From a virus (lineage: Duplodnaviria > Heunggongvirae > Uroviricota > Caudoviricetes), in IMG/VR virus record IMGVR_UViG_2548876698_000017: a DNA stretch of 34,976 nucleotides. One strand, written 5' to 3'. The position numbers and the translations under genes are program-made. This document shows, one piece after another, positions 1 to 16,526 of this stretch; the stretch's first letter is position 1; the number at the start of each line of letters is the position of its first letter. The notes beneath the pieces are model-generated. The model was not told the origin of the DNA, did no database searches, and was given only the letters and a program-made list of their open reading frames with translations.

Positions 1-1251
1 GTGCTTACCGATACAAAATTAAAGAACCTCAAGCCACAGGACAAACTGTACAAAGTTTCCGATCGTGACGGGCTGTATGTAGCTGTGCTTACGTCAGGTA
101 CGGTCTCGTTTCGCTATGACTACCGTATCAACGGTCGCCGCGAAACACTGGTAATCGGGCAGTATGGGCGTGACGGTATCAGCCTGGCAGAAGCGCGGGA
201 AGAACTGATTGCTGCAAAGAAGCTGCTTAAAGCAGGCCAGTCGCCGGCTGCGGCTAAACGTGACGGTATCAAAAAGATTCGTGGTGCCGAGACATTTGCG
301 GTACATACCGACAGTTATATGAAACACGTCATCCTGGCTGAAAGTACCCGCGCAATGAAGCAGGCGGTGATCGACCGTGACATACTTCCGGTTCTTGGCA
401 ACAAAATGATGGCTGAAATTACCACATCGATGGTTCGTGATTTGTGTGACCGGATTGTCGAACGCGGTGGCCGGGCAACAGCAGTGCAGGCCCGGGAGAT
501 CATCAGCAGCGTATACCGTCACGCCAATGACCGTGGTCATGGTTTGTTTAATCCTGCGGCTGACATTAAACCTTCGTCTATCGCCATATTTAAACCACGA
601 GAGCGAACACTGACACCAGAAGAAATTGGCCTGTTCTTCCGCACGTTGGATGCCATTGGCGCTATGGGCACTATGAAAATGGCTTTAAAGCTGGTGCTTA
701 TCACTATGGTTCGTAAAGGCGAATTCACCAATGCAACGTGGGATGAAATAGATTTTAAAAAATGGACATGGACAATTCCTTCAGACCGTATGAAGGGAAG
801 TCGGGCGCACGTTATTTACCTGCCTAAACAGGCACAGGATATATTGGTCGGGTTGCAGATGTGCGCTGGTGGAAGTGAATATCTGGTTCCTGGTCGTTAC
901 AATTTCCGGAAGCCATTATCTAATGCCGCGCTGAACTCTCTGATCGACAGAACGGTGAAAATAATAAATGAAGATGGTGAGCATATTCAGGACTTCACCG
1001 TACACGATATGCGCCGTACAGCCAGTACGTTGTTGCATGAGGCTGGTTATCCTTCAGACTGGATTGAAAAGGCTCTGGCACATGAGCAGAAAGGTGTGCG
1101 CGCCGTATATAACAAAGCGGAATACGCCAGACAGCGCGCCTACATGTTGCAGCAGTGGTCCGATATGATTGATTCCTGGATTAACGGGGAGCATACGGAT
1201 CTGATTCCGTTCTCCCCGTCGAAGTTTGAGAAGTGGATGGCGGGGGAATAA
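1..1251 (+). CDS. int: Phage tyrosine integrase (P4/lambda-type); start may lie at or just before the window edge
   Basis: 416-aa ORF starting with GTG at base 1. N-terminal LTDTKLKNLKPQDKLYKVSDRDGLY arm-type segment; C-terminal HDMRRTAST (H-x-x-R) and downstream Tyr in YNKAEYARQRAY typical of tyrosine recombinases. Confidence 0.9.
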   Translation: MLTDTKLKNLKPQDKLYKVSDRDGLYVAVLTSGTVSFRYDYRINGRRETLVIGQYGRDGISLAEAREELIAAKKLLKAGQSPAAAKRDGIKKIRGAETFAVHTDSYMKHVILAESTRAMKQAVIDRDILPVLGNKMMAEITTSMVRDLCDRIVERGGRATAVQAREIISSVYRHANDRGHGLFNPAADIKPSSIAIFKPRERTLTPEEIGLFFRTLDAIGAMGTMKMALKLVLITMVRKGEFTNATWDEIDFKKWTWTIPSDRMKGSRAHVIYLPKQAQDILVGLQMCAGGSEYLVPGRYNFRKPLSNAALNSLIDRTVKIINEDGEHIQDFTVHDMRRTASTLLHEAGYPSDWIEKALAHEQKGVRAVYNKAEYARQRAYMLQQWSDMIDSWINGEHTDLIPFSPSKFEKWMAGE

Positions 1252-1282
1252 TTTTGCCCGGCACGTCCCTGTGCCGCCGCCG

Positions 1283-1939
1283 TCAGAAGAACCCTGCCTT
1301 GTCGTTGATGTACTCCGCGTGGGTCTGGATATCACGCAGGCATTTGCTCACACCGACGATGTAGCAGAACATGGTGGTCAGCTCCGCCGCCGCGCCCGAT
1401 ACGTCGTGCCCGTCTTCCTGTAACTGGTTCAGCAGATTCATCAGCAGTGAGTTCTCCGTCAGGCCGAGAACACCAGACGGAGAATGAATCAGGCTGCGGT
1501 AGCCGGGCTTCAGTGGGGCGCTGTATTCTTTTTTGTCTTCCAGCTTGATCGCCTCCATAATGGCGGGCATGAAGCCTGACAAGACCTTCTCCACTTTTGT
1601 TTCTTGTTGTCTTAAACGTTTCTCGCATTCAATGAAGTAGCGTCGTACCTGACGACCTTTTTCGTTACGCTCGACCATTGCTAGTTCTTTGGCTGTATCG
1701 AGGGTGAGGTGGTACTCTTTGCGGTTGTGGCCGCCTCTACCAGATGTTTGCTTTCCCAAATTGGAAAGCAAAATATAGTCTTGATTTTCAATGAATTCGT
1801 ATTCTGAAATGCGATTTGTAATCCATGCTGCAAACACCTTTTTAACACCTAAAAAAGCGTGCAGATCGCGGGCATTGCAAAGTAGGGATGTTTCGTTAGA
1901 TATAGTGCCGTTGAATACGGGGATGAGTTGACTGGTCAT
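1283..1939 (-). CDS. AntA/Bro-N-type phage antirepressor-like protein
   Basis: ORF track gives 1283..1969 from a TTG; I prefer the ATG at 1939 ([11 protein letters not shown]...) preceded by AGGAGG. N-terminal region ([10 protein letters not shown]...[17 protein letters not shown]...[14 protein letters not shown]) resembles the AntA/Bro-N antirepressor domain. Confidence 0.6.
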
Positions 1940-2263
1940 GATGACCTCCTTTGAAGTTTTAGTTAGCAATCACCAGTTAGTAGCTGGTGATCGGGTGTCA
2001 ACTAGAGCCTTCAAAGACGCTCCGGGCATATTCCCCTTTTGGGTATTGTATTACGCCTCTCCACCCGACCTTTGTACGGATGTGACTATGCCAAATTGCA
2101 GGCATAAAAAAGCCGCAAAGCTATCGGGTGCGGGTGACCGCTTTGAAGTTCTAGTGCGGTCAGTATGCGATAGCTCTGGCGGCATTGTCAAATCATGCGC
2201 CACTGAGTCCAGCAATCTCTGCAATACCAATAGCGAGATAATCGCGATTCGTCAGGCGTGATT

Positions 2264-2512
2264 TTATTGCATATGTCTTAGCTCCACTGAAGTTGTGATT
2301 TTATATGGGTTGCCTTTTACCTCAATAACACGATGAGGATCATTTTTTAGCTCTTCCGTAATCTTCCGTAATCTTCTAACAGCTGAACTTCGGTGTTTAT
2401 AACGGTAAGTTACAGTTTCTTTTCTCTGCAATACCTCATCATTGCGGTACTTAGTCAAAACCATGACGACTTCAAACCTGACGCCGTTGTGTGCAACCAT
2501 AATCTGCTTCAT
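2264..2512 (-). CDS. Hypothetical 82-aa protein, translationally coupled to the methyltransferase
   Basis: Internal ATG (MKQIMVAHNGV...) of the listed ORF 2264..2632; its ATG overlaps the methyltransferase stop as ATGA (rc of 2509-2512). Contains a 10-bp tandem duplication at 2352-2376. No recognisable family. Confidence 0.35.
   Translation of the reverse strand: MKQIMVAHNGVRFEVVMVLTKYRNDEVLQRKETVTYRYKHRSSAVRRLRKITEELKNDPHRVIEVKGNPYKITTSVELRHMQ
2352..2376. repeat. 10-bp tandem direct repeat (TCTTCCGTAA x2.5)
   Basis: Exact copies at 2352-2361 and 2362-2371 plus partial third; inside the predicted 82-aa ORF. Confidence 0.8.
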
Positions 2513-3159
2513 GCTGCACGCTCCCGCCCCTGGTTGTCTGTTGGTGACAGCGGAGCATTGCTGAATGCATTTGTTAATCCGCCAATATCCAACGCGTATC
2601 CAGGGTGTAGTTGCACTGCCGGGTCTTCGCACTGATTACCCCAAACATCGAAACCATGAGACGACTGGCGGGCGAACAGTTCAATGCGAGAAACATCGCC
2701 TAACAATTGCACAAGTTTTTCACGAACGATATCTGGTTTTCTTGAATGCTCAAGCCGCGGTGCGGTAAATGACTGAACGATCCCTGCATTAATGCGCGTA
2801 GGTAGTTTTCCCTTTACCGCAAACAGGCAATCTTCACTATTGGCGCGAGTCATGTGCCCCATACCCATAACCAGTTTATCTGGTTGTCGACTACCACATT
2901 TTATCCACGTGAAGCCCTTCATGGTCATCAGACGGAATCCCCAGGCTTCAACAACTTTTAGTGCTTCGAGTGGTTGTGTTGGCACCCACCACATGGCCAA
3001 CAGACAGTTTTCATCGGCCAAATCCCACACAGGAAGGCGGCAGATATCCAGCACACTCATAACCGGATATTTAAAACCGGCACCGCGATTACCATCTGCG
3101 GCTTTGTCCCGGTATACCCAGGGTGGATCTGCATAGATTAGTGTGTATTTCTTAGTCAT
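2509..3159 (-). CDS. MT-A70 family DNA N6-adenine methyltransferase (phage Dam-like orphan MTase)
   Basis: 216-aa ORF; N-terminal LIYADPPWVY (DPPW catalytic motif) and GFDVWGNQ region typical of MT-A70/phage adenine methyltransferases. GGGGTGG RBS upstream of the ATG. Confidence 0.85.
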   Translation of the reverse strand: MTKKYTLIYADPPWVYRDKAADGNRGAGFKYPVMSVLDICRLPVWDLADENCLLAMWWVPTQPLEALKVVEAWGFRLMTMKGFTWIKCGSRQPDKLVMGMGHMTRANSEDCLFAVKGKLPTRINAGIVQSFTAPRLEHSRKPDIVREKLVQLLGDVSRIELFARQSSHGFDVWGNQCEDPAVQLHPGYALDIGGLTNAFSNAPLSPTDNQGRERAA

Positions 3160-3451
3160 AAACCACCCCGCAACATCCTATGCCGCTATAGTCGCCACGG
3201 CGAAGGCCGTTACCTTTTGTGATACATTGGTCCCTGCGAACCGCGATCCTTGCACGCTCAACATCACCAGAAGCAACATCCATACACTGAAGCCAAAGGT
3301 GGGCGGCAATGCGGAACTGCCCTTTTTTCTCTCTTTCAATCGCGCGTTTTTCGATCTCTATCGCCGCAGGAGTAACGGCAACAACCTTTGAAGGGCTGCG
3401 CATTGAAACCTTGTTCATGTGATATTTTTCAAGTCGGCTTAACTTTCTCAC
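3152..3451 (-). CDS. Hypothetical protein; 3' end overlaps the methyltransferase start by 8 bp
   Basis: 99-aa ORF with GTG start at 3451 (alternative ATG at 3418); no strong RBS for either. First gene of the apparent operon; no recognisable family. Confidence 0.35.
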   Translation of the reverse strand: MRKLSRLEKYHMNKVSMRSPSKVVAVTPAAIEIEKRAIEREKKGQFRIAAHLWLQCMDVASGDVERARIAVRRDQCITKGNGLRRGDYSGIGCCGVVYD

Positions 3452-3560
3452 TTAATCCAACCATCTCTGAAAATTAATGCCAGCAGATAAAGCCATGCAG
3501 AAACAGAGGCCAGGAATAAGTACCATCCTGACCATTTGCTCCAGTGCCTTAGCAGCACAC

Positions 3561-3809
3561 TCATGCCGCGTTGCTCACGGGACGATATACACGTTGCTGA
3601 ACAGGAGGTTTTTTACCCTGGAACTCTGCCGGGCTTGCTGCCTGACGTTCATCAAGCCAACGCTCAACTTCATCACGGTTCCATGCGCAGCGTTTATCGG
3701 TGATATACCAGCGTTTAGGAAATTCCCCTGCGCGCTCCATACGGTCGATAGTGCTCCATGACAGTGGCACCACCGCCAGGAGTTCCTTCTTACCTAATGC
3801 ACCTTTCAT
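3561..3809 (-). CDS. AlpA-family HTH protein / putative excisionase
   Basis: 82-aa ORF; LLAVVPLSWSTIDRMERAGEFPKRWYITDKRCAWNRDEVERWL matches the AlpA/Xis pattern (S-x-S-T-I-x-R ... FPK ... W ... EV-x-x-WL). Confidence 0.65.
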   Translation of the reverse strand: MKGALGKKELLAVVPLSWSTIDRMERAGEFPKRWYITDKRCAWNRDEVERWLDERQAASPAEFQGKKPPVQQRVYRPVSNAA

Positions 3810-3858
3810 AAATACCTCTCTTGGTTGCAGTGCGGCGCGCGTGGCGCCGCGGTGGTGG

Positions 3859-4740
3859 TTACATAGATGTTTCGTTTAATTCTTCCCGACGAACGCTGTA
3901 AACGTCGGTGGCTTTTGCCAGCAGTTCGTCATCATCTGAAAGTTTTTGTGCAATGTATTTGTAAGCCTTATCCAGTTCGGAGACAGTGCTGTAATTCATC
4001 GCTGCGCTGGTAAAGGCCATCAGCATTTCTTCTGGATCACGGCTATCCGCTTTACGCGTTTGCTCATCAGGCTTTTTCGCTGGTTTAGCGTTGATCAGAC
4101 TGTTCATTCCCGCAGCAGTGGTCGTTTGCGGAGTAATGTCTCGCTCAACGCGCGGTGCCGTTTCCTGTAATTCGTCAGGGGTGTAAACACCGAGAAGTAC
4201 ATCAGGAGCGTGCAGGCGAGCCCATCGTTTCGTGCAAAGATAGGCAAGCTGCTGGCGCGGATCCTGTTCCCACAATGGAGAGTTACGCACTCCGGCTTGC
4301 GCCATACTGATGGTAAGCTCACGGGGTTCTGCTTCTCCTTTAAGAACTGCTGACACAGTTACCGTCAGATTCGGTGATTTATCTGTTTTGCCGTTAACAT
4401 TCGACCAGTCACCGCTCCAGCGATAATTCAGGCGTGTCGCTAGCAGGCTGGAAGAGGATACGACCGCGTTTACCAACTGTGCTTCGTAGCCTAACGTTCC
4501 GTTTACCACATGCGTTTTCTGCGCCACGGCGAAAGGATTCATTCCCCACTGTGCCGCCTGCATGGTCACCGCCAGACAATCGGCAGGTTTGCCTTCAAGA
4601 TGTTTCGGTACAGTCGCTTTGCTTTGTGACATCAACTCCGCGAAACGCACCAGTTGATTCATGCCCTCCGGGCTGAAGATTGCCGCAGCAGTACCTACAG
4701 TTGCGCCTGGTTGTGATGTGATTGCGATATCATTGCTCAT
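3859..4740 (-). CDS. recT: RecT-family single-strand annealing recombinase
   Basis: 293-aa ORF with RecT-like core (MQAAQWGMNPFAVAQKTHVVNGTLGYEAQL). Start ATG overlaps the upstream exonuclease stop as ATGA. Confidence 0.85.
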   Translation of the reverse strand: MSNDIAITSQPGATVGTAAAIFSPEGMNQLVRFAELMSQSKATVPKHLEGKPADCLAVTMQAAQWGMNPFAVAQKTHVVNGTLGYEAQLVNAVVSSSSLLATRLNYRWSGDWSNVNGKTDKSPNLTVTVSAVLKGEAEPRELTISMAQAGVRNSPLWEQDPRQQLAYLCTKRWARLHAPDVLLGVYTPDELQETAPRVERDITPQTTTAAGMNSLINAKPAKKPDEQTRKADSRDPEEMLMAFTSAAMNYSTVSELDKAYKYIAQKLSDDDELLAKATDVYSVRREELNETSM

Positions 4741-6009: not shown

Positions 6010-6090
6010 AACTTGTTGCCTCGGCCTGTTATCGTTGAGGTAATAATTATGCGTATCTGGTTTGATGTCAATAGATATGAGTTAAAAAAA

Positions 6091-6141: not shown

Positions 6142-6162
6142 TACTTACTGAAAAATATGATT

Positions 6163-6747
6163 TTATTGTTTGTTTTTTTCGTTCTGGTTGATGACAAATT
6201 CAATGTAACTTTCGATCTTTGCTTTCTCGGTTTCGGGTAACAATGCGTAGCGCGAGCGATCATAGTTGATGGTCGCAGGGTCGTGCGGGTGAATCAGTAA
6301 TTCATAGCCGTGACGCCCGAATGCGGATGCAACATTCTCCAGGGTGGAAATGGAAACGCTGACCTCATTGTTTAACAGGCGGCTGATTGTCACTTGGGCG
6401 ACGCCGGATGCGCGGTGTAGTTTTCCCTGCGTTGAAAGGTCGCGGCTTTCGCTCATCCAGCGTTCCAGGTTGTGAGCCGCCAGCTGACCTATATCGCTCG
6501 GGCCGACAGGCTGAAAACCCTCCTGAGAAAGCGAGCGATCAATATCAAGCCAGTTACGGGGTTTATTGGCGGCAGCTTCAATTTTTCGTGCAACCTGGTC
6601 GCCGATAACCTTCTTGCCAAGAGCCCAGCGGTTTACCAGATTTGCCTGAGTTCCAAGTTTTTCTGCCATCCGCGTCTGAACACCATTGAATTCACGGTCG
6701 ATCAAGTCGTTGAGATTTTGCCTGCGGACGTCCTGGATACTTTTCAT
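6163..6747 (-). CDS. Putative prophage immunity repressor with two HTH regions and no LexA-like peptidase domain
   Basis: 194-aa ORF divergent from a Cro-like gene with three operator palindromes between them. HTH-like segments MAEKLGTQANLVNRWALGKK and ASGVAQVTISRLLNNEVSVSISTLENVASAF; no S24 peptidase motif seen. Confidence 0.6.
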   Translation of the reverse strand: MKSIQDVRRQNLNDLIDREFNGVQTRMAEKLGTQANLVNRWALGKKVIGDQVARKIEAAANKPRNWLDIDRSLSQEGFQPVGPSDIGQLAAHNLERWMSESRDLSTQGKLHRASGVAQVTISRLLNNEVSVSISTLENVASAFGRHGYELLIHPHDPATINYDRSRYALLPETEKAKIESYIEFVINQNEKNKQ

Positions 6748-7498: not shown

Positions 7499-8314
7499 AT
7501 GAGCAGACATGCAACAGATTGGGCCTGGGAGACAGATCCAGGTAGCTCATCATTAAAGCTCATACTGCTCTCGATGGCTGACAGAGCCGATGAATATAAC
7601 CTCTGCTACCCCAGCATAGAACGCCTCGTTAAAGACACTTGCCTGAATAAAAAAACCGTGCAGGCCGGGCTTATATCGCTCATGAAAATGGGGCTTATTT
7701 CAGATACCGGAGAGAGAAAGGGAGCGACGAAAAGAGTGCGGGTTTTCTCTCTTAATATAACCAAAAACGGGAACATTAAAGGCAACCGGGAAGGGGGTAA
7801 TGAACCCGAAAACGGTAATGTTACCGAAAACGGGAATATACCCAAAAACGGGATGTTGAATGATCCCAAAAACGGGATGTTGAATGATCCCAAAAACGGG
7901 ATCCAGAACCAGTCATATAACCAGTCATTTAACCAAGAGAGGGAGAGCAGGACAAAAAGCGGGGATTCTGTGCCTCATGACCCCGGCGCAAACAACGCCG
8001 TGATGAATAACTTTGTTCCTCCTGGTGGGCCAGGGCAATTAGGCAAATTTGTCATGCATGAACAATGGCAACCATCAGATGACTTTCTTCGGAAAAGCTC
8101 ATTGCAGGGGATCTACCTGGACAGTCTGCCAACGGCACAGGAACTTGCAGAGTTCAGAATTTACTGGATGGCTGAGGGTAAGGCATACCATCAGGCGCAG
8201 TGGGAGCAGAAGCTGGCAAGGCGGCTGCAGATTAGCAGACAGAAGCAATCAACATTACCTGATAACAACGTTCCGCACTGGAACAGCCCTGAAGCATGGG
8301 AGGATTTCTTGTGA
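7499..8314 (+). CDS. Replication initiator (lambda O-like role) with N-terminal winged-helix domain; origin iterons inside the gene
   Basis: 271-aa ORF; N-terminal LKLILLSMADRADEYNLCYPSIERLVKDTCLNKKTVQAGLISLMKMGLIS resembles replication-initiator HTH domains. Central KNG-repeat peptide is encoded by six DNA iterons. Stop overlaps the next gene start. Confidence 0.7.
   Translation: MSRHATDWAWETDPGSSSLKLILLSMADRADEYNLCYPSIERLVKDTCLNKKTVQAGLISLMKMGLISDTGERKGATKRVRVFSLNITKNGNIKGNREGGNEPENGNVTENGNIPKNGMLNDPKNGMLNDPKNGIQNQSYNQSFNQERESRTKSGDSVPHDPGANNAVMNNFVPPGGPGQLGKFVMHEQWQPSDDFLRKSSLQGIYLDSLPTAQELAEFRIYWMAEGKAYHQAQWEQKLARRLQISRQKQSTLPDNNVPHWNSPEAWEDFL
7761..7910 (+). repeat. Six iterons, core CC(A/G)AAAACGG(G/T)A, inside the O-like gene (candidate replication origin)
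   Basis: Copies start at 7761, 7806, 7824, 7841, 7865, 7889; the last three are 24-bp units, two of them identical (CCCAAAAACGGGATGTTGAATGAT). Followed by the direct repeat CCAGTCAT(A/T)TAACC. Confidence 0.6.
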
Positions 8315-9096
8315 ACAACGTTTTTACCGCAATACAAAACCGTGACGGAGAAGCTCTTTCTCGCATGTCAGGTTATGAGCATCAGTACGTCAACAATGAC
8401 AACGTAGTGAACATGTCAGCAGAGAGGCTTGTTGATGCCCTTTTCAAACAGTTGAAACAACTGTTTCCGGCGGCAGTGGTAACCAACCTGAAGACGCCAG
8501 AGCAGGAAGTTGCTGCAAAACAGCAGTGGATTGCTGCGTTTGCCGAAGGGGGGATCCGAACCCGTGAACAGGTTTCTGCTGGTATGCGCCACGCCCGCGC
8601 CAGTGATTCTCCGTTCTGGCCGTCGCCAGGGCAATTCATCAAGTGGTGCAAAGACAGCAAGATGGTTCTTGGCGTCACCATTGACGATGTGATGACGGAG
8701 TTTCACCGGTACAGCAAGGAAAAAAGTTTATATCCTGGTGGTCCCGAAAGATTCCCGTGGCGGCATCCGGTTATGTACTGGGTCGTATGTGATACCCGCC
8801 GTGCAATGTATCAGCGCCAGCTTAGCGAGATAGAGGTTGAGAAACACGCGCGCAGGCTGCTCGATGATTGGGCGAAAAAGGTGGCTTCCGGACAGCAGAT
8901 ACCCGATCCGGTGATCAGCATACAGGCAAAGCCAGAACCCATGAGTACGCCTCCGGACACAGGGAGAGACGTTTACCATCCACCAGGGCGAAGTTTCGGG
9001 TGCATGCCTAACGCCGCCACCCTTGGGGGAATAACACCGGCGCAGTGGCTGATGGAGGAATACAGGCGAGGAAAGGCGGAAGGATTTATCAAGTAA
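8311..9096 (+). CDS. Lambda P-like replication protein (helicase loader)
   Basis: Pattern match to lambda P as I recall it: FPAAVV...QQWIAAFAEGGIRTREQVSAGMRHARA...PFWPSPGQFIKWC. I prefer GTG at 8311 (GGGAGGA RBS 6 nt upstream, GTGA overlap with O stop) over the track's ATG at 8296. Confidence 0.8.
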   Translation: MNNVFTAIQNRDGEALSRMSGYEHQYVNNDNVVNMSAERLVDALFKQLKQLFPAAVVTNLKTPEQEVAAKQQWIAAFAEGGIRTREQVSAGMRHARASDSPFWPSPGQFIKWCKDSKMVLGVTIDDVMTEFHRYSKEKSLYPGGPERFPWRHPVMYWVVCDTRRAMYQRQLSEIEVEKHARRLLDDWAKKVASGQQIPDPVISIQAKPEPMSTPPDTGRDVYHPPGRSFGCMPNAATLGGITPAQWLMEEYRRGKAEGFIK

Positions 9097-9133
9097 TACC
9101 AGCGCGATAGCGCATTTTTTTACGTTTCGATAA

Positions 9134-9148
9134 TTACCTGTTAGGTAA
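9134..9148. promoter_or_regulatory. Operator-like palindrome TTACCTGTTAGGTAA (perfect)
   Basis: Intergenic region after the P-like gene, upstream of the DUF1064 gene. Confidence 0.55.
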
Positions 9149-9195
9149 TAAAATATTCTAAAATCTATTGATTTCGTGTCTTACGTGGTTTTTAA

Positions 9196-16449: not shown

Positions 16450-16526
16450 TGGCGTGGCATGCAGGATTCGAACCTGCGACCAACCGCTTAGAAGGCGGTT
16501 GCTCTGTCCAACTGAGCTAATGCCAC
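16450..16526 (-). tRNA. tRNA-Arg (anticodon UCU, reads AGA)
   Basis: Minus-strand 77 nt: GTGGCATTAGCTCAGTTGGACAGAGCAACCGCCTTCTAAGCGGTTGGTCGCAGGTTCGAATCCTGCATGCCACGCCA. Folds as a cloverleaf with 7-bp acceptor stem, GGTTCGAATCC T-arm, anticodon loop CTTCTAA and encoded 3' CCA. Confidence 0.9.

Follow-up and report, generated by a model that had tools for sequence, protein, structure and literature searches.

What occupies the interval between the integrase gene and the excisionase gene of a prophage, and does it form a single functional unit? This question is raised by a stretch of 34,976 nucleotides (the window, from the IMG/VR virus record IMGVR_UViG_2548876698_000017), in which a P4-type integrase gene (int) and a gene for an AlpA-family excisionase/regulator lie 2309 bp apart. 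The original prediction, made from the sequence alone, had correctly placed these two genes about 2.3 kb apart, and it proposed that everything between them is cargo: an AntA-type antirepressor gene and an operon in which an MT-A70 methyltransferase is accompanied by two small open reading frames (ORFs). We identified the window as an Escherichia coli phiV10/epsilon15-like (Uetakevirus) prophage adjoining guaA. The 2.7 kb around the locus showed 100% identity with an E. coli F1005 prophage that adjoins guaA and, over part of the region, 98–99% identity with phage phiV10 and its relatives. In NZ_OY754353.1, which is 100% identical, RefSeq calls the same five genes, with the int coding sequence (CDS) located after guaA. 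Comparison with related phages and a small RNA (sRNA) element found upstream of the antirepressor gene (ant) argue for a model with three layers, to which we assign a probability of about 0.7: a conserved operon, an exchange slot holding a gene for an 82-amino-acid protein (ORF82), and an autonomous ant cassette that would be gated by RNA.

An sRNA-Xcc1 element in the leader of ant

The ant gene (positions 1283–1939, minus strand) codes for a protein of 218 amino acids (aa) that matched the AntA domain (PF08346) over residues 22–92 with 91.8 bits and the family phrog_377, "anti-repressor Ant", with an E value of 1.5e-66, so that the AntA-type gene predicted beside int was borne out. PGAP calls a CDS with the same limits, and the true start is the ATG at 1939, which has a strong Shine-Dalgarno (SD) sequence, and not the TTG at 1969. 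The antirepressor of the Shiga toxin (Stx) phage Phi24B was considered as a functional model for ant and discarded, being a different gene, located near Q and P22-Ant-like (PMC3064807). The gap of 324 nucleotides (nt) between ant and ORF82 (1940–2263) contains a leader and, within it, an sRNA-Xcc1 element (1981–2070, minus strand), which lies on the ant strand with its 3' end 41 nt upstream of the ant ATG. Xcc1 was the only RNA family besides tRNA detected in an Rfam scan of the window. It matched RF02221 over the full model (positions 1–87 of 87) and above the curated threshold (62.9 bits, the gathering score being 53; whole-window E=3e-9). The minimum free energy (MFE) fold of the single sequence reproduced the architecture of the family, in which a closing stem encloses two hairpins, a conserved one (hairpin 1) and a variable one (hairpin 2).

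The sRNA-Xcc1 family was described from a Xanthomonas campestris integron cassette, and others have noted the element in APSE phages, where it precedes an ORF6N gene, and in integron cassettes, where it precedes symE; in Xylella it was reported as expressed RNAs, with five clustered copies. In the record of the Shiga toxin 2 (Stx2) phage F039, "sRNA-Xcc1" is annotated beside "antirepressor". The searchable literature contained no paper tying Xcc1 to antirepressor control, to a cis-linked target or to a role like that of the C4 RNA of phages P1 and P7, and a 2025 review of phage sRNAs covers C4 and IsrK, not Xcc1.

In the direction of transcription (minus strand throughout), the leader begins with a sigma70-like promoter, TTGACA-18-CATACT (2162–2191), which matches the consensus at 10 of 12 positions and both hexamers of which are kept in five diverged leaders. 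It is followed by an upstream duplicate of the proposed target, b1/a1, CUAGAACUUCAAAG (2141–2154), by a terminator-like hairpin, CCGCA-N11-UGCGG plus U6 (2106–2133), which was read from the sequence and is identical in five related leaders, and then by Xcc1. Between Xcc1 and the candidate targets a further hairpin, TCACCAG-N7-CTGGTGA (1970–1990), was also read from the sequence; it folds at z=-3.1 and has analogues after the closing stem in other loci. The candidate targets are b2, CUAACUA (1960–1966), and a2, CUUCAAAGG (1948–1956), the latter overlapping the ant SD, AGGAGG (1945–1950). The segment that comprises a2 and the SD (1956–1945) is CUUCAAAGGAGG, after which the AUG follows at 1939. 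A LexA-type CTGT-N8-ACAG box was not seen in 2140–2263 on inspection by eye, with no formal scan.

Two parts of Xcc1 are complementary to this region. The loop of hairpin 2, UCUUUGAA (a', 2009–2017), is complementary to UUCAAAGG, G-U pairs included, and was assigned to a2 (1948–1956). The junction UAGUUG is complementary to UAACUA, and its segment (b', 1998–2007) was assigned to b2 (1960–1966), with 6 bp including one G-U pair. The upstream b1/a1 segment contains the same 9-mer as a2. Comparison of five close leaders from E. coli and Shigella revealed that the promoter, the terminator and the scaffold are constant and that a1, a' and a2 change together, giving four specificities (a1/a'/a2): CUUCAAAG/CUUUGAAG/CUUCAAAGG, CUUACAAG/CUUGUAAG/CUUACAAGG, CAAAUAAG/CUUAUUUG/CAAAUAAGG and ACGUCAG/CUGACG/ACGUCAGG. 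The b sites of the same leaders showed a coordinated 1-nt deletion. At least four word types occur among the Stx-phage cassettes of E. coli and Shigella.

Seen as DNA, these segments repeat an 8–9-bp word, twice in direct and once in inverted orientation, between a promoter and a gene start, and they could be operators for a sequence-specific protein and not RNA pairing partners. We give this explanation almost no credence. Many loci stay complementary only via G-U pairs, as UCUUUGAA does with UUCAAAGG, which would be meaningless for DNA recognition, and the sites are placed on an SD and within the loop of an RNA hairpin that covaries. Moreover, the cassette does not encode a specificity protein varying along with the sites: over its first ~95 aa, Ant is 93% identical between cassettes with different sites.

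Agreement between Xcc1 and the adjacent gene was also found among distant relatives. Viral contigs were scanned for the invariant core of hairpin 1, which gave about 120 loci; this hairpin is almost invariant across very diverged loci (AUACAAnACCC-N4-GGGGAA). For the 71 non-redundant viral loci in which the closing stem could be parsed and an ORF follows downstream, duplexes were computed between hairpin 2 plus junction of each Xcc1 and its own downstream ribosome binding site (RBS) window. The mean energy with the own partner was -17.8 kcal/mol versus -10.66 ± 0.34 with permuted partners, and none of 10,000 permutations reached the observed value. A copy of the locus's own a2 7-mer was found within 150 nt 5' of the RNA in 44 of 70 loci, versus 1.5 expected. 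The structure itself also covaried (0.266 in 70 loci versus 0.156 after shuffling, a value reached in 0 of 500 shuffles); RNAalifold on the MAFFT alignment recovered only hairpin 2 and the tip of hairpin 1. RF02221 is filed as a trans-acting virulence-associated sRNA; here the linked RBS is identified as the co-varying target.

Antirepressor-type domains prevail among the genes located 3' of 86 distinct Xcc1 elements (P22_AR_C, 15; Rha, Bro-N, AntA and KilA-N, 10 each; P22_AR_N, 6; ORF6N, 5; also ANT), in agreement with the published placements at the APSE ORF6N gene and the integron symE. Xcc1 could instead be a trans-acting sRNA directed at mRNAs of the host or of other prophages, with its place upstream of ant being incidental. 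Rfam assigns it the type "Gene; sRNA", the literature treats it as a virulence-linked trans-acting RNA, and the PerC ORF of the window (see below) holds a second copy of CTTCAAAGG. This possibility appears very improbable to us, as the variable loop follows the neighbouring gene's RBS both across about 70 independent loci and in close relatives, the downstream genes are strongly enriched for antirepressor domains, and additional trans targets, which may exist, cannot account for the covariation.

Several further observations concern the range of targets. The ant target word occurs twice in the window, versus 0.23 copies expected; the second exact CTTCAAAGG is at 3385–3393 (minus strand), ~25 nt 3' of the internal ATG of the PerC ORF, and it could be a second Xcc1 target or a chance match. 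In a sizeable subgroup of elements, namely four high-GC viral loci (L020, L024, L029 and L051) and similar ones, Xcc1 is followed not by a recognisable antirepressor gene but by conserved ORFs of ~80 aa (MPHGAPSTPGN...) that gave no Pfam hit. Xcc1 may therefore also have targets other than antirepressors, symE of integrons being a case in point. In another locus (L100, ~8200–9164) there are two tandem units of Xcc1 plus ORF, with the words CUACUUC and CUGAGUU, each of which fits its own downstream RBS, an arrangement that recalls the five clustered copies of Xylella.

The ant leader with Xcc1 was detected in 382 of 5426 complete E. coli genomes (~7%), including the Stx phages of O157:H7 and O104:H4, with up to three copies per genome; RefSeq annotates no feature under the leader. 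These leaders fall into identity classes of ≥95%, 90–95% and 80–90%, which probably match the specificity words of the window/F039, 75/02 and Sakai types. Homology with Stx phages (87–97% at the nt level) begins at ~2197, immediately 5' of the promoter, and spans the leader and the 5' part of ant, and we take the ant cassette (2197–1283) to be autonomous, true cargo common to Stx phages.

Comparison with C4 and a model for the control of ant

The mechanism of C4 and its role in the heteroimmunity of P1 and P7 have been described (PMC12197685), and the leader of ant resembles the immI region in several respects. In the P1 record the order is P1c4/P2c4 promoters, a1, b1, c4, a2, b2 and icd-ant, and it is matched in the window by promoter, a1/b1 copy, terminator, structured RNA, a2/b2 at the RBS and antirepressor gene. 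The loop of P1 C4, UCACUAAC, pairs with b2 by the SD and its junction, CUGUCAA, pairs with a2; loop and junction would likewise be the antisense sites of Xcc1. The Rfam consensus of C4 consists of a closing stem, a tetraloop hairpin 1, a large-loop hairpin 2, a single-stranded junction and a CCACC tail. Xcc1 shares this topology, and a C-rich tail also follows its closing stem (position 2 is a C in 60 of 71 loci). The antisense words are variable and define specificity in P1 and P7 (PMC12197685), and they vary in the relatives of Xcc1 too. The P1 and window leaders align colinearly, including a similar terminator between a1b1 and the antisense RNA, which hints at a distant homology. The terminator segments of P1 (L134, 265–320) and of the window (2098–2145) are similar in sequence, GCGGnCAnCCGCA...UUGCGGnnUUUUU.

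The two systems also differ. Unlike C4, Xcc1 has in hairpin 1 a long, nearly invariant internal loop, AAUACAAnACCC...GGGGAAUA. Unlike in P1, ant follows its target immediately and no coupling ORF like icd lies between them, the target sites are 3 nt apart and not 22 nt, and no C1-type operator is evident at the window promoter. Altogether, the features of a C4-type system that were found are a same-strand antisense RNA in the ant leader, two complementary segments and upstream duplicate targets; sequence or structure homology to C4 was not found with the Rfam models.

When positions 2075–1936 were folded in cis, a'/b' paired with b2/a2 and the SD, with the hairpin 1970–1990 at the apex (MFE -41.5). 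Xcc1 might accordingly be a purely cis-acting leader (an attenuator, a thermosensor or a protein or ligand switch) that sequesters the ant RBS and gives rise to no free RNA. Covariation cannot tell cis from trans pairing, and the near invariance of hairpin 1 suggests a bound factor or a tertiary contact. We nevertheless consider a leader of this kind unlikely. In enterohaemorrhagic E. coli (EHEC) EDL933, an sRNA-Xcc1 locus, which we infer to be the 933W ant leader, shows very high transcription and very low ribosome coverage, the 89-nt Xcc1 being reported as a discrete, abundant and poorly translated transcript (PMC5331693). These data are consistent with an abundant non-coding RNA in lysogens, and Xcc1 is known as expressed RNAs in Xylella as well. 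The C-rich tail after the closing stem mirrors that of C4, which is processed by RNase P, is excised and acts in trans, and the upstream a1/b1 copy would be hard to explain for a simple cis switch.

Built on the observed elements, family memberships, synteny and covariation, the RNA-gated cassette model proposes a transcription pattern, RNA processing, translational repression and its relief. The cassette promoter, which looks constitutive, would be active in the lysogen and produce a leader RNA. Transcription would start near 2155; short transcripts of ~50 nt ending at the U-run of the leader terminator (~2106) would carry b1/a1 at the 5' end, and read-through would yield Xcc1, a species of ~90 nt. 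The a' and b' segments of Xcc1 would then pair with b2/a2 just upstream of and over the ant SD, in cis and, once Xcc1 has been excised, probably in trans as well, and translation of ant would be blocked in the lysogen, as C4 blocks icd-ant in P1 and P7. Relief might occur through titration by the b1/a1 leader RNA or through altered processing, both of which are speculative. The variable a and b words would set the specificity of each cassette, that is, its immunity type, by analogy with P1/P7 heteroimmunity. A broader proposal, for and against which we see the odds as even, is that proteobacterial prophages widely carry Xcc1 as a programmable immunity RNA similar to C4, and that it is not a virulence sRNA of the Xanthomonas type. 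It would combine a constant scaffold, two variable antisense words that silence the adjacent antirepressor (or toxin) gene and a 5' leader decoy, and would form orthogonal immunity types.

A number of points weigh against RNA control of ant. The RNA–RNA interactions at the ant leader are inferred computationally throughout. In the duplex analysis the own locus was the single best target in 19 of 71 cases, partly because related loci share specificities, and the baseline of complementarity is raised by an SD present in every target and a pyrimidine-rich 5' side common to the loops. The MAFFT structural alignment, partly out of register by 1 nt, supported the closing stem no more than moderately: 71.9% of its cells were paired, and sliding by +1 gave nearly the same value. 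The terminator-like hairpin of the leader is weak, with a 5-bp stem and an 11-nt loop, and a simple terminator scan missed it (2106–2133) on account of the loop being longer than 8 nt. Inactivation of a phage repressor, that of this prophage included, is a putative function of the Ant of the window. The original description of sRNA-Xcc1, known to us via citing works, is said to have presented a trans-acting RNA regulated by HrpG/HrpX. Finally, the Rfam models for C4 (RF01695, clan CL00128), c4-a1b1 and isrK gave no match at E≤1 in 1900–2300, yet they hit P1 strongly, and Xcc1, which has no Rfam clan, is not recognised as belonging to that of C4. Since the C4-family models do not match the window, we file Xcc1 as an RNA that would work like C4, and not as a member of the C4 family.

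The early-left operon and the exchange slot next to int

The int gene (1–1251, plus strand) codes for a P4-type tyrosine integrase with the Pfam domains Arm-DNA-bind_3, Phage_int_M and Phage_integrase, and is convergent with ant. At the other end of the interval and on the minus strand are the genes for the AlpA-family excisionase/regulator (3561–3809; PF05930, 24.2 bits with a cutoff of 21; phrog_66), for a 38-aa protein with a single transmembrane segment (3448–3564), for a PerC-family small regulator of 99 aa with a GTG start (3152–3451; PF06069, phrog_868) and for the MT-A70 methyltransferase of 216 aa (2509–3159; PF05063), with ORF82 (2264–2512; phrog_9805) as the last cistron. All the gene junctions from alpA to ORF82 overlap (in order ATGA, GTGA, ATGACTAA of 8 bp, and ATGA), resulting in a coupled chain of five cistrons. 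The ORF coordinates and the 8-bp and 4-bp (ATGA) overlaps of the original prediction proved exact. Its three-gene minus-strand operon was right as to genes and overlaps and too short, having overlooked the 38-aa ORF.

The early-left gene order RecT, AlpA, 117-nt ORF, PerC, (zero to two small genes), MT-A70, variable gene and int was found in phiV10, epsilon15, PAS61 and Tyrion. The window resembles the operon phiV10 p32–p36 / epsilon15 gp28–gp33 in gene order, sizes and overlaps, and its genes for AlpA, the 38-aa protein, PerC and the methylase show 98% nt identity to the Uetakevirus early-left operon. Unlike in phiV10, the last cistron, DUF1382, is replaced by ORF82, and an ant cassette of Stx-phage type has been added before int. 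These comparisons indicate that 3809–2509 is best read as the conserved distal end of a phiV10/epsilon15-type early-left operon and not as inserted cargo; the view of the whole 2.3 kb as cargo between int and xis does not hold for AlpA, the 38-aa ORF, PerC and MT-A70, which are syntenic in every Uetakevirus examined. The operon would probably be transcribed from a repressor-controlled promoter upstream of exo/recT, on infection or induction. From its position, the PL-like promoter at 6071–6043 would express AlpA, the 38-aa peptide, PerC, the methylase and ORF82.

Some features upstream of the operon and elsewhere in the prophage were also recorded. The promoter just mentioned, TTGACA-17-AATTAT (minus strand), lies between the repressor gene and the early-left genes, and a strong terminator (8 bp, six of them GC, then TTTT) is located at 6142–6123 (minus strand), where phiV10 also annotates one; they are likely the PL promoter and the end of the repressor transcript, respectively. 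The repressor is a helix-turn-helix (HTH) protein of 194 aa, encoded at ~6163–6747. The recT gene (minus strand) ends at 3859 and is separated from alpA by a GC-rich stem-loop with no U-run, GCGGCGC-CAC-GCGCGCCGC (3825–3849), the epsilon15 equivalent of which is annotated as a "transcriptional pausing" stem-loop. A tRNA-Arg gene (anticodon tct) is present at 16450–16526 (minus strand), with 73.3 bits for the Rfam tRNA model and agreement of ARAGORN.

The 38-aa ORF, with the translation MSVLLRHWSKWSGWYLFLASVSAWLYLLALIFRDGWIK, fills the gap between AlpA and PerC through its ATGA and GTGA overlaps. Its counterparts are PhiV10p35 and epsilon15 gp32, and 117-nt homologues are annotated in Tyrion and PAS61 as well. 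The 99-aa protein matched the Pfam PerC family (PF06069) over residues 35–80 (30.1 bits, cutoff 22.6) and phrog_868, "transcriptional activator" (E=6.5e-62), and its name in PGAP is PerC family regulator; against the NCBIfam model ANR (NF033650) it scored 23.6 bits, under the cutoff of 32. Both small ORFs had been regarded as having no recognisable function, which stands for the 82-aa protein and not for this one. Its epsilon15 orthologue, gp31 (24.2 bits on PF06069), has a conserved N-terminus, and the GTG start is supported because gp31 begins with ATG at the same position. Comparison with the GF43 variant gave seven synonymous changes and one non-synonymous change, a clear sign of purifying selection on this ORF. 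Like PerC of enteropathogenic E. coli and Pch of EHEC, the 99-aa protein is small and helical, with the PerC core motif; unlike them, it covers only half of the PerC profile. PerC and PchABC activate transcription of ler and the enterocyte effacement locus (LEE). The genes pchA–E of EHEC are prophage-encoded, as is the PerC-family gene of the window, and the divergent prophage homologues PchD and PchE do not control LEE (PMC6265319). That the 99-aa protein holds a conserved place in an early operon of phages points to a role directed at the phage.

The methylase matched PF05063 over residues 5–176 with 79.7 bits and has an intact DPPW motif; its YADPPW and IELFAR motifs align to 7f4r, and the nearest solved relatives are Tetrahymena MTA1-type enzymes and METTL3. 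It is predicted to be an orphan class beta N6-adenine methyltransferase. Its DPPW motif, its MT-A70 domain and the lack of a nuclease are shared with the stand-alone phage MT-A70 enzymes, fold kin of ciliate MTA1 and METTL3, and it has a C-terminal extension of ~25 aa relative to most homologues. These are nearly all stand-alone proteins of about 195–216 aa. PADLOC returned a generic MTase_II match (2.8e-77) and no cognate nuclease or other defence component adjoining the gene, the neighbours of which are the PerC-family protein and the 82-aa orphan. The enzyme would most likely modify replicating phage DNA, for protection against restriction or as a mark. As leads for it, M.EcoGIX, a plasmid single-strand-specific enzyme, was dropped as unrelated, and M.EcoGII was rejected in that it is of class beta and nothing ties it to the window methylase.

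The slot between methylase and int has different occupants among phages: DUF1382 in phiV10, a NinI phosphatase in PAS61, a 60-aa serotype-conversion repressor in epsilon15, a 68-aa ORF in Tyrion, and ORF82 plus the ant cassette in the window. The ATGA that overlaps the methylase stop is the start of DUF1382 and of ORF82 alike, and in a sister E. coli prophage the methylase is joined directly to the ant cassette, with no ORF82. The suggestion of an int-proximal hotspot therefore fits 1252–2512 and fails beyond 2512. Among 5426 complete E. coli genomes, ORF82 occurs in 19, in each case within a prophage of this type, while the methylase is carried by hundreds. It forms one 90% cluster in a word-indexed search, and an exhaustive HMMER search of 1.84 billion representatives gave one true homologue (52% identical), located in a different integrative element with no MT-A70 neighbour and beside a 353-aa protein without Pfam hits. 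The same search matched two long repetitive proteins, P0004 and P0005, which look like low-complexity matches. A perfect 10-bp tandem duplication, AAGATTACGG x2, lies at ~2353–2375 of ORF82 (minus strand) and encodes RRLRKITEE; it may explain these spurious matches. Searches of Pfam, NCBIfam and PADLOC gave nothing for ORF82, phrog_9805 is a family of unknown function, tblastn against phages found HEMP4 only, and the single-sequence AlphaFold2 model was unreliable (pLDDT 54.6). Relative to the sole sequence variant, ORF82 had two synonymous and six non-synonymous codon changes, with no sign of purifying selection. ORF82 would thus be a rare, weakly constrained near-orphan in an exchange slot, not a partner of the methylase.

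These data bear on the explanation that the whole 2.3 kb is int-xis cargo, in which the 99-aa and 82-aa proteins are modulators of the methylase or parts of a small anti-restriction or defence module. The tight coupling through 8-bp and 4-bp overlaps, the real exchange hotspot next to int and a rare fusion would speak for it. This fusion, P0008 from a Logan assembly, has 297 aa, is 98% identical to the methylase, contains PerC and MT-A70 Pfam domains and is represented by three member sequences on one contig; it would most simply be a frameshift in the 8-bp overlap. PerC and MT-A70 belong to the backbone of the genus; in epsilon15 and Tyrion, one or two further genes stand between them, and in the Stx2 phage F039 a homologous MT-A70 gene is followed by DUF1382 and has no PerC neighbour. 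The original prediction had made its proposal dependent on the small ORFs being conserved with the methylase and showing a coding signature; ORF82 is absent from most methylase carriers, is dispensable in the sister prophage and has more non-synonymous than synonymous changes. A separable PerC, a dispensable ORF82 and a mostly stand-alone methylase speak against small partners that modulate the enzyme, and no defence or anti-defence family was recognised beyond the generic orphan MTase_II. Judging from synteny, this explanation appears largely refuted, and we regard it as improbable.

Implications for prophage immunity

The part of the locus that comprises the methylase and PerC is backbone for which annotation already exists in a described phage genus, and the idea of small ORFs that modulate the methylase can be given up. 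For an Rfam family that has been without a mechanism since its description, the ant leader provides a concrete, testable function and a target. It would extend the C4 paradigm of P1 and P7 to a second RNA scaffold, located before at least seven antirepressor domain families, and the natural variants in which three sites covary are ready-made compensatory mutants. Antirepressor control bears on prophage induction and hence on Shiga-toxin release. If the model is true, the module gates an Ant that is common to Stx phages, and it could couple or insulate induction between co-resident prophages.

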